Shown: one piece after another, positions 24,953 to 39,280 of the stretch
How positions within the stretch are numbered: the stretch's first letter is position 1
How the letters are laid out: each line of letters begins with the position of its first letter
Assembly: GCA_964291395.2 (NCBI GenBank)
Contig: OZ219856.1
Location: 928,001 to 992,000 of the forward strand
Source: Alphaproteobacteria bacterium
GTDB lineage: Bacteria > Pseudomonadota > Alphaproteobacteria > UBA2966
Direction of reading: 5' to 3'
DNA: 64,000 nucleotides
Made by a program: the position numbers and the translations under genes
Notes under the pieces: generated by a model
Database searches by the model: none
What the model saw: the letters and a program-made list of their open reading frames with translations, nothing else
What the model was told of the DNA's origin: nothing

Positions 24953-25010
24953 GCGGCTGTTGAGCCAAGCCGAGGCGGCGGAGATACCGGGGGTCTCGGA
25001 GCGCACCTTC
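24953..25010 (+). pseudogene. Transposase HTH remnant (ISNCY/IS481-like)
   Basis: RLLSQAEAAEIPGVSERTF. Confidence 0.5.
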
Positions 25011-25044
25011 CCGCCCGGCGACCGAAGGGCAAGATAAAGGGCAT
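25005..25044 (+). repeat. 40-bp direct repeat, copy 1 (pair with 26186-26225)
   Basis: ACCTTCCCGCCCGGCGACCGAAGGGCAAGATAAAGGGCAT, 38/40 identical to copy 2. Confidence 0.9.
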
Positions 25045-25196
25045 TGTTGATTGTTTTGAGCCATGAATCCGTAGATCCCTTGCCCACCTCACTTGAGGGT
25101 TGTGGCTGCTGTTTACGGAGCGCGGCATCCCTCATTTGCTTGTACTCTCTTTCGGGATATGGTTGAGCCATACATCTTGTTGCAGACATGCCTACG

Positions 25197-25433
25197 ATGA
25201 AGACCACGCTCAATCTGAACGATCAGGTGCTCCGCCAAGCCAAGGGACGGGCGGCGCGGGACGGGATCACGCTCACCAGATTCGTCGAAGACGCCTTGCG
25301 CGCGCGCCTCGCGGACGCGCGCAGGAGGAAAGGATCCTTCCGTCTGCGGCTGGAGACCGTGACCGGGGACGCACCCCCCAACGTCGACATCGCCGACCGG
25401 GACGCGCTGTATGACGTGCTCGATCGAGCGTGA
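25197..25433 (+). CDS. vapB: VapB-type ribbon-helix-helix antitoxin
   Basis: MKTTLNLNDQVLRQAK...FVEDALR; overlaps PIN gene start. Confidence 0.85.
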   Translation: MKTTLNLNDQVLRQAKGRAARDGITLTRFVEDALRARLADARRRKGSFRLRLETVTGDAPPNVDIADRDALYDVLDRA

Positions 25434-25857
25434 TTGCCGTCGACACCAACATCCTGATTTACGCGCACCGCGGCGAGACCGAGTTCCACGCTGCCGCGGT
25501 CTCACGGCTCACCGCCCTGGCCGAGGGGGCGGAACGCTGGGCCCTGCCGATATTCTGCGTCACCGAGTTCATGCGGGTCGTGACGCATCGCCGCATATTC
25601 AACCCGCCTTCCACGATCGCCCAGGCAGCCGCATTCATCGAGGGCCTCGCGGCCGCTCCGAGTTGCGAGCTCGTGCAGCCGGGACCGGAGTTTCTCCCGC
25701 TTCTCATCTGGCCGCCCGCGAAACCGACGCACACGGCAACCTGATCTTCGACACGCAGATCGCCGCGCTGTGCCGCGAACACGGCATCGATACGATCCTC
25801 ACGAACGACCGTGATTTCGGGCGCTTCGGGCCTTTGAAGGTGCATCGTCTGAGCTGA
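25430..25857 (+). pseudogene. vapC: VapC PIN-domain toxin, frameshifted near 25705
   Basis: IAVDTNILIYA in one frame; GNLIFDTQIAALC...TNDRDF in another. Confidence 0.85.
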
Positions 25858-25861
25858 CGCC

Positions 25862-25960
25862 GAGACGCGTGGCGAGATGGACCGCTCGGGACGTATCAGC
25901 AAGGTCGGCGTCGGGGCTGTCCGCGCCGCGCTCTACGAGGCCGCCACCGTGCTGCTCAAA
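25862..25960 (+). pseudogene. IS110-family transposase remnant
   Basis: DRSGRISKVG...VRAALYEAATVLL. Confidence 0.7.
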
Positions 25961-25968
25961 GAATCCGC

Positions 25969-26180
25969 GTCAACGGCGGATGTCTTGAGGGCAGGGACGA
26001 ACGGAATGAGCGAGGTCGCGGTAATCGCCGGGCTGCTTCTCAAGCCCGCCTGGCTTCTGATGCCAAGGCTACCTAGAGCAAAAGCTCGCCCGGAACGTCG
26101 AGGCCAAAAGGAACTTCTGCCAAGCCGCCCATGTGTCCTTGAGGTGCCCTACCGAATCTCTTGCGCCCGCCGCCGTTGAC
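25969..26180. mobile_element. MITE-like segment bounded by 11-bp inverted repeats
   Basis: GTCAACGGCGG (25969) / CCGCCGTTGAC (26170). Confidence 0.4.
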
Positions 26181-26185
26181 ATCCA

Positions 26186-26225
26186 ACCTTCCCGCCCGGC
26201 GACCGAAGGGCAGGATAAGGGGCAT
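26186..26225 (+). repeat. 40-bp direct repeat, copy 2
   Basis: ACCTTCCCGCCCGGCGACCGAAGGGCAGGATAAGGGGCAT. Confidence 0.9.
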
Positions 26226-26360: not shown

Positions 26361-26597
26361 ATGGGCAATCTGACGGTCCGTAACCTCGATGATCGTGTGA
26401 TCGAACGACTCAAGGCGCAGGCCAAGGCGAACCAGCGTTCGCTGGAGGGAGAGGTCCGCCATGTGTTGACGCAACAGGTGGACCGCCCCAGCCGTATCGT
26501 CGCCTTCCGCGAGCGAACACGGCAACTTGTCTCTCTGACGGCGGGTACGAACCAGACCGACAGCGCTGAGCTGCTGCGGGAGGATCGGGACCGGTGA
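26361..26597 (+). CDS. FitA/Arc-like antitoxin
   Basis: MGNLTVRNLDD...LKAQAKANQRSLEGEVR...DSAELLREDR. Confidence 0.9.
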   Translation: MGNLTVRNLDDRVIERLKAQAKANQRSLEGEVRHVLTQQVDRPSRIVAFRERTRQLVSLTAGTNQTDSAELLREDRDR

Positions 26598-27408
26598 GAG
26601 TGACAGTGGATGCCAGCATCGTCGTCAAATGGTTCGTGGCCGAGCCGCTGTATAGGGAGGCGCGTCTTTTGTTGGACCGGCGTATCCACCTTCACGCTCC
26701 CGATTTCGTGCTCGTCGAGTTCACGAACACGATATGGAAGAAGGTACGCCGGAAAGAGATTCCAGATCCTACGCCGTACCTCGAGGAGCTTGCGGTCTTA
26801 CCCGAAATTGTTGCCCTCCAACCGAGCAGCTCGCTCATCGAGCGTGCTGCACAGATAGCGGTGGAGATCGACCATCCGGTTTACGACTGTCTCTACCTCG
26901 CTTGCGCCGAAGCCACGGATTCGACCGTAATCACTGCCGACCGCCGCTTCGCTGACAAGGCCGTTGATCAGCCGTTTGGCATTTCCGTCCATCACATCGC
27001 AGCACCAGACGTCGCGGGGCGACTAGAGACGGCAGCGACCGCGCTGATTATCGGAGGAGACAAAGTCGAAGCGCTAATCTCCGCCTATGACCTTTTTGCA
27101 GAAACAGAGCGATCAGTTCTTGATGAACTCTTTGCCGGGCGCCCAGGACCGCATATTATACCGACAAGGACCGAGAACCCTTCCTCGACTCTCCCTCCTA
27201 TCGACACCTTGTCGGCTTAGTCCGCGAGTTGAATGCCGACGAGTGCATCGACCTCAACGCTCTAGGCTGGTTGGGTGCCGGCCTCTTCCCCGACTGGCCA
27301 CGAAGCCTCGCGCATGCCGAAGAAATGACGACAAGCCTCGACCCCGAATACACCGCCGGTTATGGCCACCACTGGCGGACTGGATATAGGCGGGCGACGG
27401 GCACGTGA
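26594..27408 (+). CDS. PIN-domain toxin with C-terminal extension (1-bp frameshift near 27160)
   Basis: VDASIVVKWF, HPVYDCLYLA, ITADRRF; reading continues in a second frame (LNADECIDLNALGWLG) to TGA 27408. Confidence 0.75.
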
Positions 27409-27669: not shown

Positions 27670-27840
27670 GTCGAGCAAGGCAACGCCTCGTCTCGAGCGT
27701 CGACAGGTCGAAACGGCTGGAGGAGATCGATGTCGAATCCGACTACCTCGCCGCCTTCAGGTCGACATTGAGGACACTTCCCGGGTCTCCGCGCCAGGTC
27801 CGGCTTTGAGTTCGACATAGAGGCCGTCTCGCAGTTTCAT
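27670..27840 (-). pseudogene. DUF2283-type antitoxin remnant
   Basis: MKL..LYVELKAGPGAETREV / LNVDL / GEVVGFDID / FDLSTLET in shifting frames. Confidence 0.7.
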
Positions 27841-28094
27841 TATTGTCCCCTATTCGTCTCCATACCGTCTGTCAAAAAAGCATTATGGACGGTTTCGCCG
27901 TCTTGGAGGGTGACGACTCGTAGGATCCGCCGCGTATCTTCACCAGGACGGGAGATCTCGCCCCAGAACCGAAGGCGCCCATCAGGACTGCTCCTCCCGC
28001 CGCAGCGGCGCGGCAATGACCGCAACGCATCATGCCGGGCTATGTAAGGGCGCTTGCGACGCACTTGCTCGTCGAAATAACGCGTTGTCTTCAT
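27840..28094 (-). CDS. Putative toxin partner of DUF2283, possibly degraded
   Basis: MKTTRYFDEQV.RKRPY...PDGRLRFWGEI...LRVVTLQDGETVHNAF; TAATG overlap with the DUF2283 start. Confidence 0.6.
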   Translation of the reverse strand: MKTTRYFDEQVRRKRPYIARHDALRSLPRRCGGRSSPDGRLRFWGEISRPGEDTRRILRVVTLQDGETVHNAFLTDGMETNRGQ

Positions 28095-28323
28095 GCGCGG
28101 CAGGCCGAGGCGTTCCAACGGTTGCCCTACACCGCGCTACTGTCTTCAGCGGATACAGCCGCAGGCGTGGGCTCCATCGGTTCCAAGGACCCGCCATCGT
28201 CCGCGCCTGACCTCATCCGACGGCCTCTCGGACCGGTCGGGGCACGAACGTCATTGTTGTCGGCAAAGAATGGTGTCAGGTTCCGTCATCCCCGGCGGGC
28301 TTCGGGGGAAGGCGAGGGCAGGC

Positions 28324-28545
28324 ATGAACAGGCGGTTGACGGCCATCGTCGAACGCGACGGCGACGGGTACGTCGCGCTCTGCCCCGAGGTGGATGTCGC
28401 CAGCCAGGGGGACAGCGTGGCCGAAGCACGCGGGAACCTCCAGGAGGCGTTGACCCTGTTCTTCGAAACCGCGTCCCCGGAGGAAGTCGGGCGGCGGACC
28501 CGGAGCGAGTTCTACGTCACCCATATCGAGGTAGCCGTTGCCTAG
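28324..28545 (+). CDS. hicB: Short HicB-family antitoxin
   Basis: YVALCPEVDVASQGDSVAEARGNLQEAL. Confidence 0.88.
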   Translation: MNRRLTAIVERDGDGYVALCPEVDVASQGDSVAEARGNLQEALTLFFETASPEEVGRRTRSEFYVTHIEVAVA

Positions 28546-29270: not shown

Positions 29271-29449
29271 CCGGATCCTATCCGGAAAATCTGTTTCCTG
29301 GGCTGTCGCGGGCGGCGGGTGAACGGCCATTGTGGCACCGTGGCAGAAATATCACATCCGGGAACATTCCATGACCGGCGCGCGGTAACGGTTTGTGCCT
29401 GTGCGCCCGTGTTCCTATAAATTCGGTCGTCACGCATTTACTCAAGAGG

Positions 29450-29464
29450 TTCCGATAATGAAAA
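29450..29464 (+). repeat. 15-bp inverted-repeat partner of the 30729-30752 site, overlapping the porin ATG
   Basis: TTCCGATAATGAAAA vs reverse complement of 30738-30752, TTCCGACAATGAAAA (14/15). Confidence 0.7.
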
Positions 29465-30575
29465 CAGTAAAGCAACGGCTTCTGCCTTTTGCCACCAGCG
29501 CCCTGGTGGCTGCCGCATCCATGGCAGGAGGGGCCGCGAACGCCGAGGCGATGAAGCCGCCCTGTCGGTCGAGCGGTTACTACTAACCGACCGACACATG
29601 GCCGACGAAGTCGGGTCAGGATGGCGACGGCCGTATCTCCAGGGGCATGACTCGGAAGTATTTTCAACGGATCCGGCGCCCCTCGACAACGGCATCAAGA
29701 TCGCCGCCGTTGGCGGAGTTCGAGGTTCATGGGCTGGTGGCGTTGCGGCGACACTGGATCAGCCTTCGGGCGGCTGGGGCACCGCCTTCAGGCTGGGATG
29801 CCCGGACGGGCGTAGCAAGCCCAGACCCGCCGGCGCGGCCTATGGGCGGTTATGCGGCGTCACATCAGGCGTGCAGACCGGTGGTTCAAGGGGCCGGACA
29901 TTGATTTCAAGGGATGTGCGTTCCGTTGCACCTTGGGTGGAACGAACCTCGATGCCGGGAAATGAGCCGACCAAGGCCACTACTTCTCGCCCCGCTTCAA
30001 CGGCTTCCAGTTCGCCGTGTAGCGTACCGTCCGTCGATCACAGACGAAAAGGCCGCGAACGAGGACCGGCACAGACGAGTATCACAAGCGAGTCGCCCGT
30101 CTTTACTCCGGTTGACGGTGCCGAACGTAACGGCGAGTTCGGGCGGCCGTATCAGCGCCACCGTTGCCGCACAGGGATAGGCCGACCCCGATATGCGGCG
30201 GAAGGCGGTCCCGACTACGAGCACGTGGTGGTCGGCTGGTCATCGCTCAGCGCTATGGGCTTCACCGTCGGCGGCCGCATCTGCCAATGAGGGCCGAGAA
30301 TGGTGCCCACAACGACACCAACTCCTTCGATGCGCGCTCGGCGTCTCATGTACGGTCAAGGGCCGTGGAAGGTCAGCGTGCCGACGTGTTCTCAGGCTCG
30401 ATCAAGCCCGGGGACGAGTACAACGCTTGGTCCCGCGGCTACACGGTCGGTCCGGGGCTGAAGGCGGTCATCGCCGGATTCCAAGACCGCGACCTCTATG
30501 GACCCCGAGGGGGATGCCGGCAGCGTGGACGTAAACGTGCCTTCATCCGCTGGCGTGGCGGCACTTCGTGGAAAG
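29458..30575 (+). pseudogene. Alphaproteobacterial porin, heavily decayed
   Basis: Signal peptide (ATSALVAA), LDNGI at 29682, YFSPRFNGFQF at 29981 followed by TAG, GFTVGG, GYTVGPGL at 30437, in different frames. Confidence 0.8.
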
Positions 30576-30651
30576 TCTTGAGTGGCCCCCAGAACAGCCG
30601 CCTGACCGACTTCGAACCCCGTCCTGCCTTTATCGTGGACTCGGTCGGGAG

Positions 30652-30681
30652 AGGGCGGTTCCTTCGGGGGCCGCCCTTTTT
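30652..30681 (+). terminator. Rho-independent terminator of the porin gene
   Basis: AGGGCGGTTCC-TTCG-GGGGCCGCCCT followed by T run. Confidence 0.85.
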
Positions 30682-30728
30682 GGGCCATCGCCCGAGCCTG
30701 TCACGCCGAACCCAAAAGGCACGATTCC

Positions 30729-30752
30729 TTCCGATAATTTTCATTGTCGGAA
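30729..30752. other. Candidate tyrosine-recombinase core site (9-6-9)
   Basis: TTCCGATAA-TTTTCA-TTGTCGGAA, about 270 bp from the recombinase stop. Confidence 0.6.
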
Positions 30753-31024
30753 CGTGCGCGCGTCTTGTTCACGCCGCCGCATGTGCCGCTTCTCCCAGGA
30801 TTCGAGCGGGTACGGCGCGACTGCTCGCAGGATGCCGATGTCGTTCCGTCCCGACCGATCGTGCCCGCCGACGGGCCCGACACGCCGCGGCAGCGCCGAT
30901 GCGAGAGGCCGAAGCCGCGGTGGCCGTTATCCGCGTCGCCGGGCCGTTCGAGGCCTTGGGAGGTCCGAGTTGCGCCGGCCGAAGACACCCGCTGGACGAA
31001 GGAGGTGCCGAAGCCCGGCACGTC

Positions 31025-32086
31025 CTAGGCGCATTCTCGCGGACTTGTCCGGCAATCGCAGGTTTCGCGCCGGCAAATGCCGCAAAGAATATCGCCCTGG
31101 GATCCCGGGCCGTGCCTCAATCGCGCGACCGCCCCGCGTGCCGCGAGCTGGCTGCGGGCATAGCGGCCCGGCATGGACGGCGACTGCCAGCGTCCGGCGA
31201 CCTGCATCTCGACCAGCCCGGCCCCGGCCGCGGCGAGGGATTGCGCGGACCCGATCCGGAGCGAGTGACCGGAAACCCGACCCTCGATACCGGCTTCGGC
31301 GGCGCGCGCCTGGATGATGGCGCGGGCGGCGCGATCCGTGATCGCTTCGGCCAGGACCACCCCGTTGCAGCGGATGCGCCGGAACAACGGGCCGTCATGG
31401 ATGCCGCCTGCGTCGCGCCACGTCGTGATCCTCCGCATGGTCGGTTCGCCGACGAACAATACCGCGCCTTCTCCTTCCTGGTCCGTCTTGCTGCGATGCA
31501 CGGTGAGCCGGCCGGACCCGTCCGCCTCGGTCTCGAGGTCGGCAACTTGGGTGGCGACGGCCTCGGACATGCGGAGCAGGCAATCGCTGGTGAGCGCGAC
31601 AAGCGCAGCATCGCGAAGCCCGGCAAGCTTCCTGTCGCTATTGGCTGCCACGGCGGCAACGGTATCGGCTTCGGACCATTGGAGGCCCCTTACTTGGCCG
31701 CGGCCACGCCCGCGCCCCTCGCGGCGGATCCCGGCAAGCACCCGAAAGGTTTGCTCGCCGACCGGCGCCGGATGCCCGACCAGCTTCGCGGCAGTCTTCA
31801 CGGCGGCAACGGTAAGCGCGATCGTTTCTGGCGCGAGTCCGGCTTCATGGCGCTCGGCGAGATAGTCGGCGATCGCGACGTCGTTGGGTTCCCGACCTTG
31901 TTCGGCAAGCCAGGAGTCGAGGCTTGCGAGCGCAGCGCGATAGGTGGCAATCGTGCGGGGAGCAAGGGCCGCACCGGCGAGGCGCTGCGCGGCTTCAGAG
32001 AGCGGCGCTACGGCTTTCGCCGGAAATTCGGCACTCGAAGCGGTTATTGCGGCGGACAACGCGGTTGCTTTGGCAGTGCGTGGCAT
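31025..32086 (-). CDS. Cre-like tyrosine recombinase
   Basis: GLRDAAL, LLRMSE (R), RSKTDQ (K), GHSLR (HxxR), GRW (W), PGRY (Y); catalytic set complete. Confidence 0.93.
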   Translation of the reverse strand: MPRTAKATALSAAITASSAEFPAKAVAPLSEAAQRLAGAALAPRTIATYRAALASLDSWLAEQGREPNDVAIADYLAERHEAGLAPETIALTVAAVKTAAKLVGHPAPVGEQTFRVLAGIRREGRGRGRGQVRGLQWSEADTVAAVAANSDRKLAGLRDAALVALTSDCLLRMSEAVATQVADLETEADGSGRLTVHRSKTDQEGEGAVLFVGEPTMRRITTWRDAGGIHDGPLFRRIRCNGVVLAEAITDRAARAIIQARAAEAGIEGRVSGHSLRIGSAQSLAAAGAGLVEMQVAGRWQSPSMPGRYARSQLAARGAVARLRHGPGSQGDILCGICRRETCDCRTSPRECA

Positions 32087-32442
32087 AACGTTTCCCTGTA
32101 GACAACTTCCGATCGGCACGGTCCTCGAGTGGATCGGAAACGGACAGCAGGCGACGCATGCCGACACCCCGCAGTGTGGAATGTCGGTCTCCGAAAGGGC
32201 AGCCGTTGCGCCCCGGATCGACAACCCGCCGAGAGATGACAGCCGGTGCGTCATTGATTGGGTCTCGCCGGTTGGCTCGCCGCATCGTCCGAGCCACGTG
32301 CAAGACCAGACCCAATATAGGTCCCGATGCGGAAAAGAAAATGTCGTGCCGGCATACCTCCATACGAGCGCGGCATGTCGCCGGACCGGCCCTTCGCCCC
32401 GTTCCGCTCCTTCGTTCCGGAGAAACGGCCGGGCATGTGCCG

Positions 32443-32493
32443 ACAGGAAAACGGACCGTGGTGAGACGGAAATCACCTTGCGGTCAGGGCCGG
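32443..32493 (+). repeat. 51-bp perfect direct repeat, copy 1
   Basis: ACAGGAAAACGGACCGTGGTGAGACGGAAATCACCTTGCGGTCAGGGCCGG. Confidence 0.97.
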
Positions 32494-32747
32494 TCGCCTG
32501 ATCGATTCGGTCCTATCATCCGAGGATCGACCGCTGCTCGGGATCAAGTACAGCTGCTTCGACGACGTAGACCGCCGCGAAAGTACATAGGGCCCGGTTG
32601 CCCGAGCCCTATGTCGGCCAGCTTGGCCGACCCCGGAGCGCAATGCTCTGATAATCGGAACATGGCGCTGTCGCCCGGACGGGTCAAGAACGTCGGCTGT
32701 GCAACCTGTGCGTTGCATCGTTTGCCTCGGTGTGTATATAGTTGCGC

Positions 32748-32930
32748 ATGTTGCGCAGTAGCCGGGACATCGTCAAGCGTCTCAAGGCCGAAGGGTTCGA
32801 ACTGGTGAGCGTGAAGGGATCGCACCATAAATACAGAAAGGGCACGATCACCGTGGTCGTGCCGCATCCGAAGAAGGACTTGCCCGTGGGCACCGCCCGG
32901 AGCATCGCCAGGCGGGTGGGCTGGAACTGA
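32748..32930 (+). CDS. hicA: HicA mRNA interferase toxin
   Basis: GFELVSVKGSHHKY...VVPHPKKDLPVGT. Confidence 0.93.
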   Translation: MLRSSRDIVKRLKAEGFELVSVKGSHHKYRKGTITVVVPHPKKDLPVGTARSIARRVGWN

Positions 32931-32940
32931 GGAGACAGTC

Positions 32941-33330
32941 GTGCACTACGTCGCCGTCATAGACAAGGACCCTGGAAGCGCCTACGGGGTCCGGTTTCCG
33001 GAGGTGCCGGGATGCTATTCGGCCGCCGACAGCTTCGATGACATCGTTCCCAACGCGATCGAGGCGTTGAGCCTGTTCTTCGAGGACGGTGAGCCTGTGC
33101 CACCGCGCGGCATCGAAGCGGTGCGTGAGCAAGTTGCCGGGAGCATCGCGGAGGGCGCGGTGCTGATGATGATTCCCTATGTGCGGGACCGGAAGCGGGT
33201 CGTGCGGGTGAACTTGAGCCTGGAGAAGGGGTTCCTCGATACCCTCGACGAGGCGGCGCGCATGCGTGGCATGACGCGCTCCGCGTTCGTTCAGAAAGCA
33301 GCCACGCGAGAGATACTCGACCCAGCCTGA
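32941..33330 (+). CDS. hicB: HicB antitoxin with C-terminal RHH
   Basis: YGVRFPEVPGCYSAAD; RVNLSL...GMTRSAF. Confidence 0.93.
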   Translation: MHYVAVIDKDPGSAYGVRFPEVPGCYSAADSFDDIVPNAIEALSLFFEDGEPVPPRGIEAVREQVAGSIAEGAVLMMIPYVRDRKRVVRVNLSLEKGFLDTLDEAARMRGMTRSAFVQKAATREILDPA

Positions 33331-33479
33331 AACGGGCAAAGTCGTCGGCTTCGGGGTAAATCTCGACGCGCCGCGCCGCGAGGCCGCCAACGACAGCGAT
33401 CACGCTCTGATGCTCGGGGGCGCCCGTGCTCGGCTTTCCCGCTTCCCGGCCCGGCAGCCGCGCCGGGAAGCTTCCGCCA

Positions 33480-33530
33480 ACAGGAAAACGGACCGTGGTG
33501 AGACGGAAATCACCTTGCGGTCAGGGCCGG
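33480..33530 (+). repeat. 51-bp perfect direct repeat, copy 2
   Basis: Identical to 32443-32493. Confidence 0.97.
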
Positions 33531-33750
33531 CGCCGGCGGTGGCCAGGCCGCTCCGGGCAGGAAAGTCGGCCCCGGGCAACGCCTTTGCCGGGCGGGGGTC
33601 GAACCCGCTGGGCAGCGTCGGAAGGTTTCAGGCCGCCCCGTCCTCCGTCCCGGGACTTCGCCCGGCGCCAGGTCGAAGTGGAACGCCGGTTGACACTCGT
33701 GACATTACCGGGTCACTTCCTTGCCGGCGCTGAAAGTGAAATTCGAAGAT

Positions 33751-34776
33751 ATGTCCGTAAACGTTCTCACGAGAGCCGAACCGATCGACGCCCGTGAAGT
33801 TCCCGTAGTCGATATCGCTCCGCTGCGGGATGGCACCGACGCCGCCCGGGTCGGGGCCGAACTCCACCGGGCCGCGAGCGAGGTCGGCTTCCTCTACATC
33901 CGCAATCACGGGGTGGACGCGGCGGTGGTCGAGCGGGCGCGGCGGGCCGCGCTCGCGTTCTTTCGGCTGCCGGAGGAAGCCAAGCGGGAAGCCGGCACGA
34001 ATCAATACCACCACGGGTATCTCAAGCCGGGGTCGACGAAGATGTACGACGACGCCAGGCACGATCTCAAGGAGAGCTTCAACTGGGGCATCGAACCCTT
34101 CGGCGAATCAGGCGGTGATCACAACTCCATGACCGCGCCGACGAACGCTCTCGTTGGGCCGAACGTGTGGCCGGCGGCGATGCCGGAGCTCAGGACCAGC
34201 GTCTATCCGTACTTCGAGGCGGCCAGCGCGTGCGCGGAAGATCTCCTGCGGGGCTTCGCGCTTGGCGCCGGCCTTGACGCCGAGCATTTCATCCGACTCC
34301 GCGACCGGCCGGTGAGCCGAGGGTCGCTCCAATACTATCCTCCGCAACCGGAGGGGGCCGAGGAGGACCAGTTCGGCGTCGCCCCGCACACCGATTTCGG
34401 CCTGCTCACCGTGCTCTGCCAGGACGAGATCGGTGGGCTCGAAATCCGGCTGCCCGACGGCCGGTGGGCCGCCATGCCACCGGTCCCGGACACCTGCGTC
34501 GTCAACATCGGAGACCTGCTGGAACGCTGGTCGAACCGCCGGTACCGTTCCACCGTGCACCGGGTGATCAACAGGAGCGGTCGCGACCGCCTCTCCCTCG
34601 TGGTCGCCTACGATCCGAACTTCGAGACCCTCGTCGACCCGCGGGCGTTCTGCGCGGAGGAAGAGGTGCCGTGCGACGAGCCCATCACCTGCGGCGACTA
34701 CCTGCTGTGGCGATTCGGGAAGGCATTTTCCTATCGCCGGCGAGGCGAGGAGGGCTCCCGGGCGCCCGCCGACTGA
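33751..34776 (+). CDS. Isopenicillin N synthase-like 2OG-Fe(II) oxygenase
   Basis: GFLYIRNHGV, DLKESF, HTDFG, NIGDLLERWSN, STVHRV, RLS. Confidence 0.93.
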   Translation: MSVNVLTRAEPIDAREVPVVDIAPLRDGTDAARVGAELHRAASEVGFLYIRNHGVDAAVVERARRAALAFFRLPEEAKREAGTNQYHHGYLKPGSTKMYDDARHDLKESFNWGIEPFGESGGDHNSMTAPTNALVGPNVWPAAMPELRTSVYPYFEAASACAEDLLRGFALGAGLDAEHFIRLRDRPVSRGSLQYYPPQPEGAEEDQFGVAPHTDFGLLTVLCQDEIGGLEIRLPDGRWAAMPPVPDTCVVNIGDLLERWSNRRYRSTVHRVINRSGRDRLSLVVAYDPNFETLVDPRAFCAEEEVPCDEPITCGDYLLWRFGKAFSYRRRGEEGSRAPAD

Positions 34777-35627: not shown

Positions 35628-36042
35628 GTTGTCGGAAAGGTGGCGTCGGGCTCGGGGTGCGGCCAGGTGCATGATCGGGTGTCGATCCGGCAACCCGGGG
35701 CCCGGAAGAGTCCTTTACCCGCTACCTCACGATGACAAGCTCCTCCCCGGGTACCGGCGTGTTGTTCGCCGCGCCTCTGGCAATGACGGCCTCGCGTCCG
35801 CCATGCTGTTCGATAAGCCGTGCCTGATCGGAGAGCGCCCTTTCGTTGATCTCTTCCGGATCGATCATCTTCAGGAGGTCTTCCTTCAAGCCGTTCAACG
35901 TTCCGGAATGGCTTGGATCGGCCGCGACGTTGTGCAGTTCTTCGGGATCGGCCTCCATGTCGTAGAGTTCCGAATCGTACCCGCCGGCATAGTGCAAGTA
36001 CTTGTAGCGATCGGTACGAAGCATGTAGACGCCGGAAATCGC
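35628..36042 (-). repeat. 415-bp duplicate of 40791-41205 (sulfatase 3' end plus downstream DNA)
   Basis: Near-identical; at least 3 substitutions seen. Confidence 0.95.
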
Positions 36043-36059
36043 CCTGGTCCGCCGGCTCG

Positions 36060-36127
36060 ACCCAGCTTGGCCGAGAAACCGGCAATGCACTAACATTCAA
36101 AGTGGACCACTCAGTGGGGGCCGGTCA
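36060..36127 (+). mobile_element. Orphan IS3 right end
   Basis: Matches 39114-39181, ending ...CTCAGTGGGGGCCGGTCA. Confidence 0.9.
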
Positions 36128-37974: not shown

Positions 37975-38253
37975 ATGGCAAGGAAGCGTTACAAGCCGGA
38001 GGAGATCGTGAGCCTGCTGCGACGGGCTGAGGTGCTGCACGGGCAGGGCATGTCGATGGCGGACGCGATCCGTCAGCTCGGGATCAGCGAGGTTACGTTT
38101 TATCGATGGCGAAAGGAGTATGCCGGGATGAGCGGCGATCAGCTTCGCCGCCTGAAGGAGCTTGAGAAGGAGAACGAGCGGCTGCGCCGTGCGGTCTCGG
38201 ACCTGACGCTGGACAAGCAGATACTCAAGGAAGCCGCCCGGGGAAATTTCTGA
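37975..38253 (+). CDS. IS3 transposase OrfA
   Basis: HTH (LGISEVTFYRWRK) and leucine zipper (LKELEKENERL). Confidence 0.93.
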   Translation: MARKRYKPEEIVSLLRRAEVLHGQGMSMADAIRQLGISEVTFYRWRKEYAGMSGDQLRRLKELEKENERLRRAVSDLTLDKQILKEAARGNF

Positions 38254-39147
38254 GCCCCTCGCGCCGCCGCCAGTGCATCGACCATGTCCGTGACCGGCTC
38301 GGGATCTCGGAAAGGCGGGCCTGCAGGGTGCTGGGGCAGCATCGCTCGACCCAGCGCCGGACCCCCTGCGGCCGTGAGGACGAGGACCGTCTGGTCGCGG
38401 ACATGATCGAGCTGGCTCGCCAGTACGGTCGTTACGGCTACCGCCGGATCGCGGCCCTGCTGCGCGACGCCGGCTGGCAGGTCAACGACAAGCGGGTCGA
38501 GCGCCTGTGGCGGCGCGAGGGGCTGAAAGTGCCAACCAAACAACCGAAGCGGGGCCGTCTGTGGCTGAACGACGGCTCCTGTGTCCGGCTGCGTGCCGAG
38601 CGGGCGGACCATGTCTGGTCCTATGACTTCGTGCATCACCGGACCCATGACGGCCGGGCCTTCCGTACGCTCAACGTCCTGGACGAGTTCACGCGCGAAA
38701 GCCTGGCGATCCGGGTTCGCAGGAAGCTCTCCTCGACCGACGTCATCGATGTGCTGACCGACCTGTTCATCCTGCGTGGTATCCCGGCCTGGATCCGCTC
38801 CGACAACGGCCCGGAGTTCGTCGCCGAGGCCGTGCGGCAATGGATCGCCGCAGTCGGCGCCCGCACCGCCTTCATCGAGCCGGGCTCGCCCTGGGAGAAC
38901 GGCTACATCGAGAGCTTCAATGCCAGGCTGCGCGACGAGCTCCTGAACGGAGAGATCTTCTACACCCTCACGGAGGCAAGGATCATGAATCGAATCGTGG
39001 CGGTGCCATTACAACGCGATCCGCCCACATGGCAGCCTGGGATGCCGGCCGCCGGCGCCGGAGACGATTATCTTACCAAGCTGGCCGTCCGGCTCCGCTA
39101 CGCTACGCCGGCCACCCAGCTTGGCCGAGAAACCGGCAATGCACTAA
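38250..39147 (+). CDS. IS3 transposase OrfB (DDE), extra 1-bp insertion near 38988
   Basis: WSYDF, SDNGPEF, PWENGYIESFN; tail IESWR.HYN..RPH shifts frame. Confidence 0.88.
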
Positions 39148-39280
39148 CATTCAAAGTGGACCACTCAGTGGGGGCCGGTCAGCAGGTAATGACCCAACTC
39201 GGACTTTCGCTGTCCCAAAAGCAATGACCAATAGGAACCTCGTCGTCGCACTTCGGTCGGGCACTCGTTGCGTTTGCCTC

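Follow-up and report, generated by a model that had tools for sequence, protein, structure and literature searches.

We analyzed a stretch of 64,000 nucleotides (nt) from the genome of an Alphaproteobacteria bacterium of the lineage UBA2966 (assembly GCA_964291395.2, contig OZ219856.1, positions 928,001 to 992,000), hereafter the window, and found in it a hicAB toxin-antitoxin (TA) operon lying between two direct copies of a short repeat, which we call the core, next to the gene of a Cre-like tyrosine recombinase. A repeat pair that adjoins a Cre-like gene and encloses a mobile TA operon is read most economically as two target sites of a recombinase. We therefore put forward, tentatively and as something short of probable, that the cores are duplicated target sites of the neighbouring recombinase and that they make hicAB excisable. 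An earlier note on this DNA, made from its letters alone, had placed hicAB between the cores with the recombinase alongside, and the Pfam matches of the genes bear out this arrangement. The elements of the locus, in positions of the window, are these:

31025-32086, minus strand: gene of a Cre-like tyrosine recombinase of 353 amino acids (aa), with the Pfam domains Phage_integrase and Phage_int_SAM_1
32439-32493: core copy 1, a 55-nt repeat with its exact block at 32443-32493, an imperfect inverted repeat (hairpin) at 32453-32485 and the centre GACGGAAA at 32465-32472
32742-32930, plus strand: hicA toxin gene, 62 aa (Pfam HicA_toxin, 66.3 bits with a cut-off of 27, profile positions 1-57 of 58; PHROG category toxin)
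32941-33330, plus strand: hicB antitoxin gene, 129 aa (Pfam HicB_lk_antitox, 77.3 bits with a cut-off of 27, profile positions 1-123 of 123)
33476-33530: core copy 2, with its exact block at 33480-33530 and its hairpin at 33490-33522

The two 55-nt copies stand in direct orientation and differ by a single mismatch, at position 4. The exact block shared by them is 51 nt long and the start-to-start spacing is 1037, so that the identical 51-bp cores 1037 bp apart of the earlier note are indeed there. No third copy was found by blastn-short in the 64-kb window, and the 33-nt hairpin part has 2 matches in it at up to 3 mismatches, where 0.00 are expected (100 shuffles). We also built a covariance model from both core copies and scanned the window with it on both strands, with the filters off. 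The core copies scored 90.7 and 90.5 bits, while the next best of 42 window matches reached 12.4 bits (expectation value, E, of 0.21). On neither side is the flank of copy 1 related to that of copy 2 (shuffled sequences align equally well in 379 of 500 and 320 of 500 cases), and the repeat accordingly has sharp edges. Its exact block has its midpoint at 32468.0; that of the asymmetric 8-nt centre of the inverted repeat is 32468.5. Such centring would be expected if the repeat were a discrete site, but not if it were a random duplication.

Between the cores, hicA and hicB are separated by a gap of 10 nt and make up an intact operon. HicB carries a ribbon-helix-helix tail. Judging from their sequences, the two genes should form a HicAB type II TA pair. 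A search for relatives of HicB retained 454 of 475 candidates at E<=0.001, and at least 120 of them, among the matches listed, have 88-100% amino-acid identity with it. The named ones come from metagenome-assembled genomes (MAGs) labelled Rhodospirillaceae, Defluviicoccus (Rhodospirillales), Albidovulum, Rhodobacter and Boseongicola. The order of Albidovulum was checked and is Rhodobacterales, to which we take Rhodobacter and Boseongicola to belong as well. Near-identical HicB proteins in two alphaproteobacterial orders imply recent transfer of a mobile operon, and hicAB is accordingly highly mobile and arrived here by transfer. As a TA module, it is unusually widespread in near-identical form.

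The recombinase gene starts 353 bp to the left of copy 1 and its transcription is directed away from hicAB. When the protein was compared with the PDB (phmmer), all 17 matches were Cre or Cre-derived chains (best E 1.3e-18, residues 65-324), and the six residues aligned with the catalytic R, K, H, R, W and Y of Cre are all retained, including the tryptophan. These comparisons point to a Cre-type enzyme with a predicted intact catalytic set. The family is large, with 1376 proteins at E<=0.001 among 8000 scored; the closest relative (P0001) is 97% identical, has 353 aa and is covered in full, followed by proteins at 85% (P0002) and 75%. NCBIfam gave only weak matches to XerC, XerD and XerA-type models (36-45 bits, against cut-offs of 220-335) and no integron-integrase match. 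A tblastn search of plasmids returned only relatives of the recombinase below 45% identity, so that it provided no usable context. The likeness to Cre/loxP extends to the place and the centre of the site: the core lies within 1 kb upstream of the recombinase gene and has an asymmetric 8-bp centre, and according to the available text of Jelicic et al. (2023, PMC10250229), sites of Cre-type recombinases have 8-bp centres and are as a rule looked for no farther than 1 kb from the gene. On the other side of the gene, 273 nt past its stop codon, there is an AT-rich 9-6-9 inverted repeat with one mismatch (30729-30752), which is probably the 9-6-9 site of the earlier note and makes another candidate recombinase site.

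Further evidence comes from a related contig, which we know through a single protein, P0241 (213 aa). It was found with a spurious minus-strand open reading frame (ORF) that runs across copy 2 (E 6.4e-19) and is itself a spurious ORF; the contig is thus known from the protein alone, and its nucleotide changes are deduced via the genetic code. Against the DNA of the window (33795-33346), P0241 is 77% identical over 152 residues (E 2.6e-68). The alignment spans, besides the core, the following features:

33441-33471: perfect hairpin with a 10-bp stem, between hicB and copy 2
33545-33671, minus strand: remnant of a group II intron (the first 100-125 nt of the intron), recognized by blastn to plasmids and by RF02005 in relatives
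33721-34776, plus strand: 2OG-Fe(II) oxygenase gene, the right-hand neighbour, whose start lies in the alignment and whose upstream region is kept, with copy 2, in the related contig

From this alignment, copy 2 in its context appears to be resident and common to the related contig, where its orthologue is slightly different. Among 68 well-aligned residues, 3 of the 16 in the core differ, as do 5 of the 52 outside it, and the core is therefore under no visibly stronger constraint than its flanks. By the genetic code, the changes in the core of the orthologue amount to at least 4 nt. Since the two copies in the window are identical while the orthologue has diverged, the duplication or homogenisation must be recent. 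No candidate was returned for residues 1-45 of the ORF at 33410-33733, the frame that crosses copy 2 on the plus strand. As for the N-terminus of P0241 (residues 1-20), it represents first the start of the oxygenase in sense and then the antisense of that same stretch, which suggests a palindromic artefact at a contig end of that assembly.

Taken together, the sharp edges, the centred palindrome and the identity of the copies, set against the diverged orthologue, indicate a discrete element that was recently duplicated or homogenised. If the cores are target sites, each would span about 51 bp, with the imperfect inverted repeat and its asymmetric 8-bp centre in the middle, and would resemble a res or a lox site in kind; it would be recognised by the intact Cre-like recombinase encoded about 350 bp to its left. 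Copy 2 would be the resident site, and the second copy would have come recently, when DNA bearing hicAB was recombined in beside the recombinase gene. In this scheme the direct orientation of the cores implies excision as a circle: the recombinase would release 1037 bp, consisting of hicAB and one core, leave one core behind, and could also re-insert such a hicAB circle. While the repeat with its sharp edges and centred inverted repeat, the intact Cre-like catalytic set, the mobility of hicAB and the presence of copy 2 in a relative are shown, we infer that the enzyme recognises and cleaves the core, that site-specific recombination gave rise to the duplication and that excision takes place. 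The scheme is plausible in that it fits the exact, direct and sharp-edged repeats, the centred inverted repeat, the adjoining recombinase gene, the mobile operon and the precedents in other bacteria, to which we return below.

Several observations weigh against it. The homology with P0241 is good to 33421 and gone by 33346, hence it breaks outside the core, 55-130 nt to its left. The last 81 residues of P0241, which lie beyond the break, hold no antisense hicB (89 of 300 shuffles score equally), and they do not match the DNA to the left of copy 1 either (60 of 300 shuffles equal). Their comparison with 32490-32760 (7 of 300 shuffles equal) is marginal after three tests and was left unused. At least one lineage thus seems to have other DNA at the position of hicB, and an unrelated insertion in the P0241 contig could be another explanation of the break. 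Nor was the core found next to hicAB elsewhere in an exact 18-mer scan of genomes, which is blind to copies diverged by about 10%. The geometry of the core also differs from that of loxP. Lox-like sites, as delimited in the available text of PMC10250229, have inverted half-sites of 11-15 bp, an 8-bp spacer and at most 2 asymmetries, whereas only 6 of 13 arm positions of the core are symmetric around its 8-bp centre, and at most 8 of 13 in any register or with any spacer. The two halves are offset by 2 nt, which gives a bulged hairpin and not a lox-type palindrome, and an inverted-repeat scan (arms of at least 9, at most 1 mismatch) does not report the core. Lox geometry is better matched by another inverted repeat, located between the cores and upstream of hicA, which is a candidate for an alternative site or a hairpin:

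32585-32614: inverted repeat, read either as 11-8-11 (10 of 11 positions symmetric) or as a 13-bp stem with a 4-nt loop

Accessory half-sites were sought as well, and the 3 further ones in 3.5 kb are background, given 95 in the 64-kb window. Finally, the recombinase gene itself is located outside the segment bracketed by the cores.

The arrival of hicAB may also have left the repeat as an inert scar or local duplication, in which the recombinase had no part and the core has no function. Homologous (Campbell-type) or illegitimate recombination, gene conversion or a loop in the assembly graph are routes to such a pair; in the last case, a de Bruijn-type assembler that walks a loop prints the shared node twice. 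The breakpoint with the P0241 contig outside the core speaks for a scar, as do the poor state of the region, which is strewn with an intron remnant, an IS110 fragment, an IS3 element and several TA modules, and the conservation of the core in P0241, which with 3 of 16 against 5 of 52 residues differing is no better than that of the flanks. The shape of the repeat is harder to reconcile with this account: the midpoints of the exact block and of the inverted repeat differ by no more than half a base, a coincidence with odds of roughly 1 in 10 for a 33-nt hairpin in a 51-nt block; the repeat ends sharply on both sides; and a recombinase gene with an intact catalytic set adjoins. We regard a scar as unlikely, yet as an account to be reckoned with. 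The core might, alternatively, be a low-copy, lineage-specific repeat of the kind of repetitive extragenic palindromic (REP) or miniature elements, or the end of an unrecognised element, which came to stand around hicAB by chance. The core, being short, palindromic, sharply delimited and intergenic, would suit this, the right edge of copy 2 is at most 40 nt from a rearrangement junction (the truncated intron), and the same island holds a second, unrelated pair of 40-nt repeats (at 25005 and 26186). Against this, the 64-kb window has no more than 2 copies, which lie within 1.1 kb of each other, and no transposase gene, be it of the RAYT type (REP-associated tyrosine transposase) or another, adjoins them among the neighbouring ORFs scanned. 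We searched 185,579 species genomes, 72,556 plasmids and 50,697 phages for the core and found no true match. The species genomes were scanned with the exact central 18-mer, by which diverged copies such as that of P0241 would be missed; it occurs at 49 loci, all of them chance matches, with 9-18 of 53 flank positions identical and many of the loci in coding DNA. The 55-mer gave 14 plasmid records at E<=10, the best at E 0.3, which is the level of chance; a match on a Sinorhizobium plasmid was rejected as such, its second arm being missing. The locus of 1621 nt found nothing among the phages. The earlier note had named a common dispersed repeat or a known insertion-sequence (IS) end as outcomes that would undo its proposal, and in these collections the core is neither. 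We consider a low-copy repeat or an element end rather improbable.

A functional RNA element was the other possibility raised in the earlier note, which saw in the cores two copies of a structured RNA. Read from the plus strand, it might act in cis, upstream of both hicA and the oxygenase gene; read from the minus strand, where the hairpin is followed by GUUUUCC, it might serve as a weak terminator or as the 3' end of a small RNA. In its favour, there is a hairpin on both strands, four U follow the stem in the minus-strand reading, and the top Rfam match is an alphaproteobacterial small RNA, ar7, on the minus strand, albeit at 15.8 bits against the 60 of its gathering threshold. The stem described earlier, GACCG-T-GGTGA-[8]-TCACC-TTG-CGGTC, does fold as claimed, though its stability is ordinary: the 55-mer reaches -18.6 kcal/mol on the plus strand (z -1.37; 18 of 200 shuffles are equally stable) and a z of -1.57 on the minus strand (14 of 200). 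With the flanks included, z is -0.80 for copy 1 (38 of 200) and -2.42 for copy 2 (1 of 200), the latter value being driven by the one perfect hairpin at 33441-33471. This hairpin is not in variable DNA, since it is within the stretch common to the related contig. The flanks, said to differ in sequence and yet to conserve the structure, do not live up to this description. They are unrelated in sequence and their pairing is at the level of chance: a 7-nt partner for GGGCCGG, with G-T pairs allowed, is present in 754 of 3196 80-nt segments of the window (23.6%) and in 1041 of 5000 and 1186 of 5000 shuffled flanks (21-24%). A partner in both flanks is consequently about a 5% event, before one allows for the free choice of the seed, and that of copy 2 (TCGGCCC, 33566-33572) sits within the group II intron remnant. 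Rfam 15 was run on the whole window at gathering thresholds, where its sole match is a tRNA and no family falls at the core, and on the locus at E<=10, where ar7 is the best (E 0.46-2.6). The terminator scan did not call the core. By the genetic code, 2 of 10 stem pairs are impossible in the P0241 orthologue under any codon choice, with no compensation, and a third is altered on one side. The core is, moreover, no better conserved in P0241 than its flanks, and two identical copies yield no covariation. With an ordinary fold, chance pairing of the flanks and no Rfam family at threshold, the RNA reading finds no support here, and we judge a functional RNA element improbable.

Returning to the reading of the cores as recombinase sites, arrangements similar to a core-bracketed hicAB have been described already, as TA operons with res-like palindromes and as dif modules. 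One is the ParE/RelE 26 operon of Photorhabdus laumondii TT01. According to the available text of Belot et al. (2026, PMC13617665), two near-identical res-I-like palindromes of 24 bp, 90% identical to a known Tn3 res-I site, flank this operon, a sister genome that lacks it has a single palindrome, i.e., an empty site, and the locus is taken for a hotspot where TA modules integrate and excise. As far as this text goes, the two cases have in common a promoter-bearing type II TA operon between two short palindromes that are putative recombinase sites. They differ in that the unit is 51 bp here and matches no known site, that the neighbour is a Cre-like tyrosine recombinase and not a serine resolvase, and that the only related contig, that of P0241, is not a clean empty site. 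In transposons of the Tn3 family, TA pairs stand beside res, irs or rst and are exchanged by recombination at res (Lima-Mendez et al. 2020, PMC7157771, available text). The order of recombinase gene, site and divergent TA pair is like ours, recombination at the site has been proposed to swap TA modules, and the family includes tyrosine resolvases (TnpI, TnpS). A second copy of the site downstream of the TA pair does not, however, belong to the Tn3 layout. HicAB was not met with among the TA types of that text, a term search of which returned 0 occurrences of HicA. In the window ORFs scanned, we found no Tn3 transposase (DDE_Tnp_Tn3), TnpT or terminal repeats.

The dif modules of Acinetobacter are, in the accounts available, small modules, TA pairs included, which are bounded by a short site of tyrosine recombinases and are thought to be mobile as units. 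Their pdif sites measure 28 bp (11-6-11), mostly stand in inverse orientation and serve the XerC/XerD of the host. The cores, by contrast, are direct copies with a centre of 8 bp, and the recombinase, at 45 bits, is far below the XerC/XerD equivalog cut-offs of 330-335; the core does not belong with dif or pdif sites on either count. There is also some likeness to integrons, in which TA cassettes are common when they are chromosomal: a recombinase gene diverges from a promoter-proximal site and from a cassette that ends in a folded repeat. The locus has only two sites and no array, unlike an integron, and it is the middle of the repeat that is conserved here, not its ends. The boundary motifs of attC are not readable at either edge of either core copy, and to our knowledge classical integrons are essentially absent from Alphaproteobacteria. 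One could go further and imagine a minimal integron-like cassette system of Alphaproteobacteria, in which a recombinase of the Cre family uses a non-lox, bulged-hairpin site of about 51 bp to capture and release TA cassettes that bear their own promoter. This is a long shot, but if true, the system would be one of several vehicles by which near-identical hicAB has spread across orders.

The movement of chromosomal TA operons is largely unexplained, and the published cases, as far as their available text shows, point to recombinase sites beside TA pairs. With at least 120 HicB variants at 88-100% identity in MAGs labelled from two orders, this hicAB is an unusually apt test case. Should the core be a site of the recombinase, the locus would represent a simple and testable Cre-like system for excision and integration, with an atypical, asymmetric site. 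If it is not, the pair would be an ordinary insertion scar in a hotspot of mobile elements.

The intron remnant adjoins the right flank of copy 2, with an inner end that is uncertain within 33531-33572. When the 1621-nt locus was searched against plasmids by blastn, only 33573-33671 matched, in 21 records of Bradyrhizobium and Mesorhizobium plasmids. For two of these plasmid loci, the start of the Rfam RF02005 match falls within the aligned stretch, on the minus strand, and the similarity of all three sequences sets in at the point from which the two plasmid introns are alike. As RF02005 starts within the plasmid match, we read 33545-33671 as the start of a group II intron. Neither the rest of the intron nor a reverse transcriptase is present in the 64-kb window. 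The remnant also occurs in the P0241 contig. The core as a part of this intron was considered and rejected: the similarity fades before 33531, and there is no RF02005 signal in it.

The locus is part of a mobile-element hotspot at 24.8-39 kb, which is flanked by housekeeping genes and contains two vapBC-like pairs, a HicB-like gene, an IS110 fragment, an IS3 element and a sulfatase fragment:

25188-25433: VapB-like gene, with a PIN gene at 25430-25857 that is apparently split between two frames
25877-26179: IS110 transposase fragment, just before the second copy of a 40-nt repeat
26361-26597: FitA-like antitoxin gene, with a PIN toxin gene at 26594-27220
28093-28545: HicB-like ORF, facing a small ORF at 27840-28118
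35722-36096: C-terminal sulfatase fragment
37975-39227: IS3-family element, with ORFs matching HTH_Tnp_1 and rve

To the right of the locus, the IS3-family element and the sulfatase fragment mark further rearrangements. Transposase domains were seen only in the IS110 fragment and the IS3 element, among 24 ORFs at 24.3-31.3 kb and 17 neighbouring ORFs. The 1.7 kb or so between the DUF599 gene and the recombinase gene (29300-31000) gave no Pfam match in 12 ORFs and no Rfam match. The hotspot also holds the second, unrelated direct-repeat pair, at 25005-25044 and 26186-26225, which is 40 nt long, 95% identical and has a sharp left edge. Each of its copies lies about 140 nt upstream of the start of a vapBC-like antitoxin gene. 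This pair may reflect a general rule of bracketed TA operons or, equally well, promoter DNA shared by the two.

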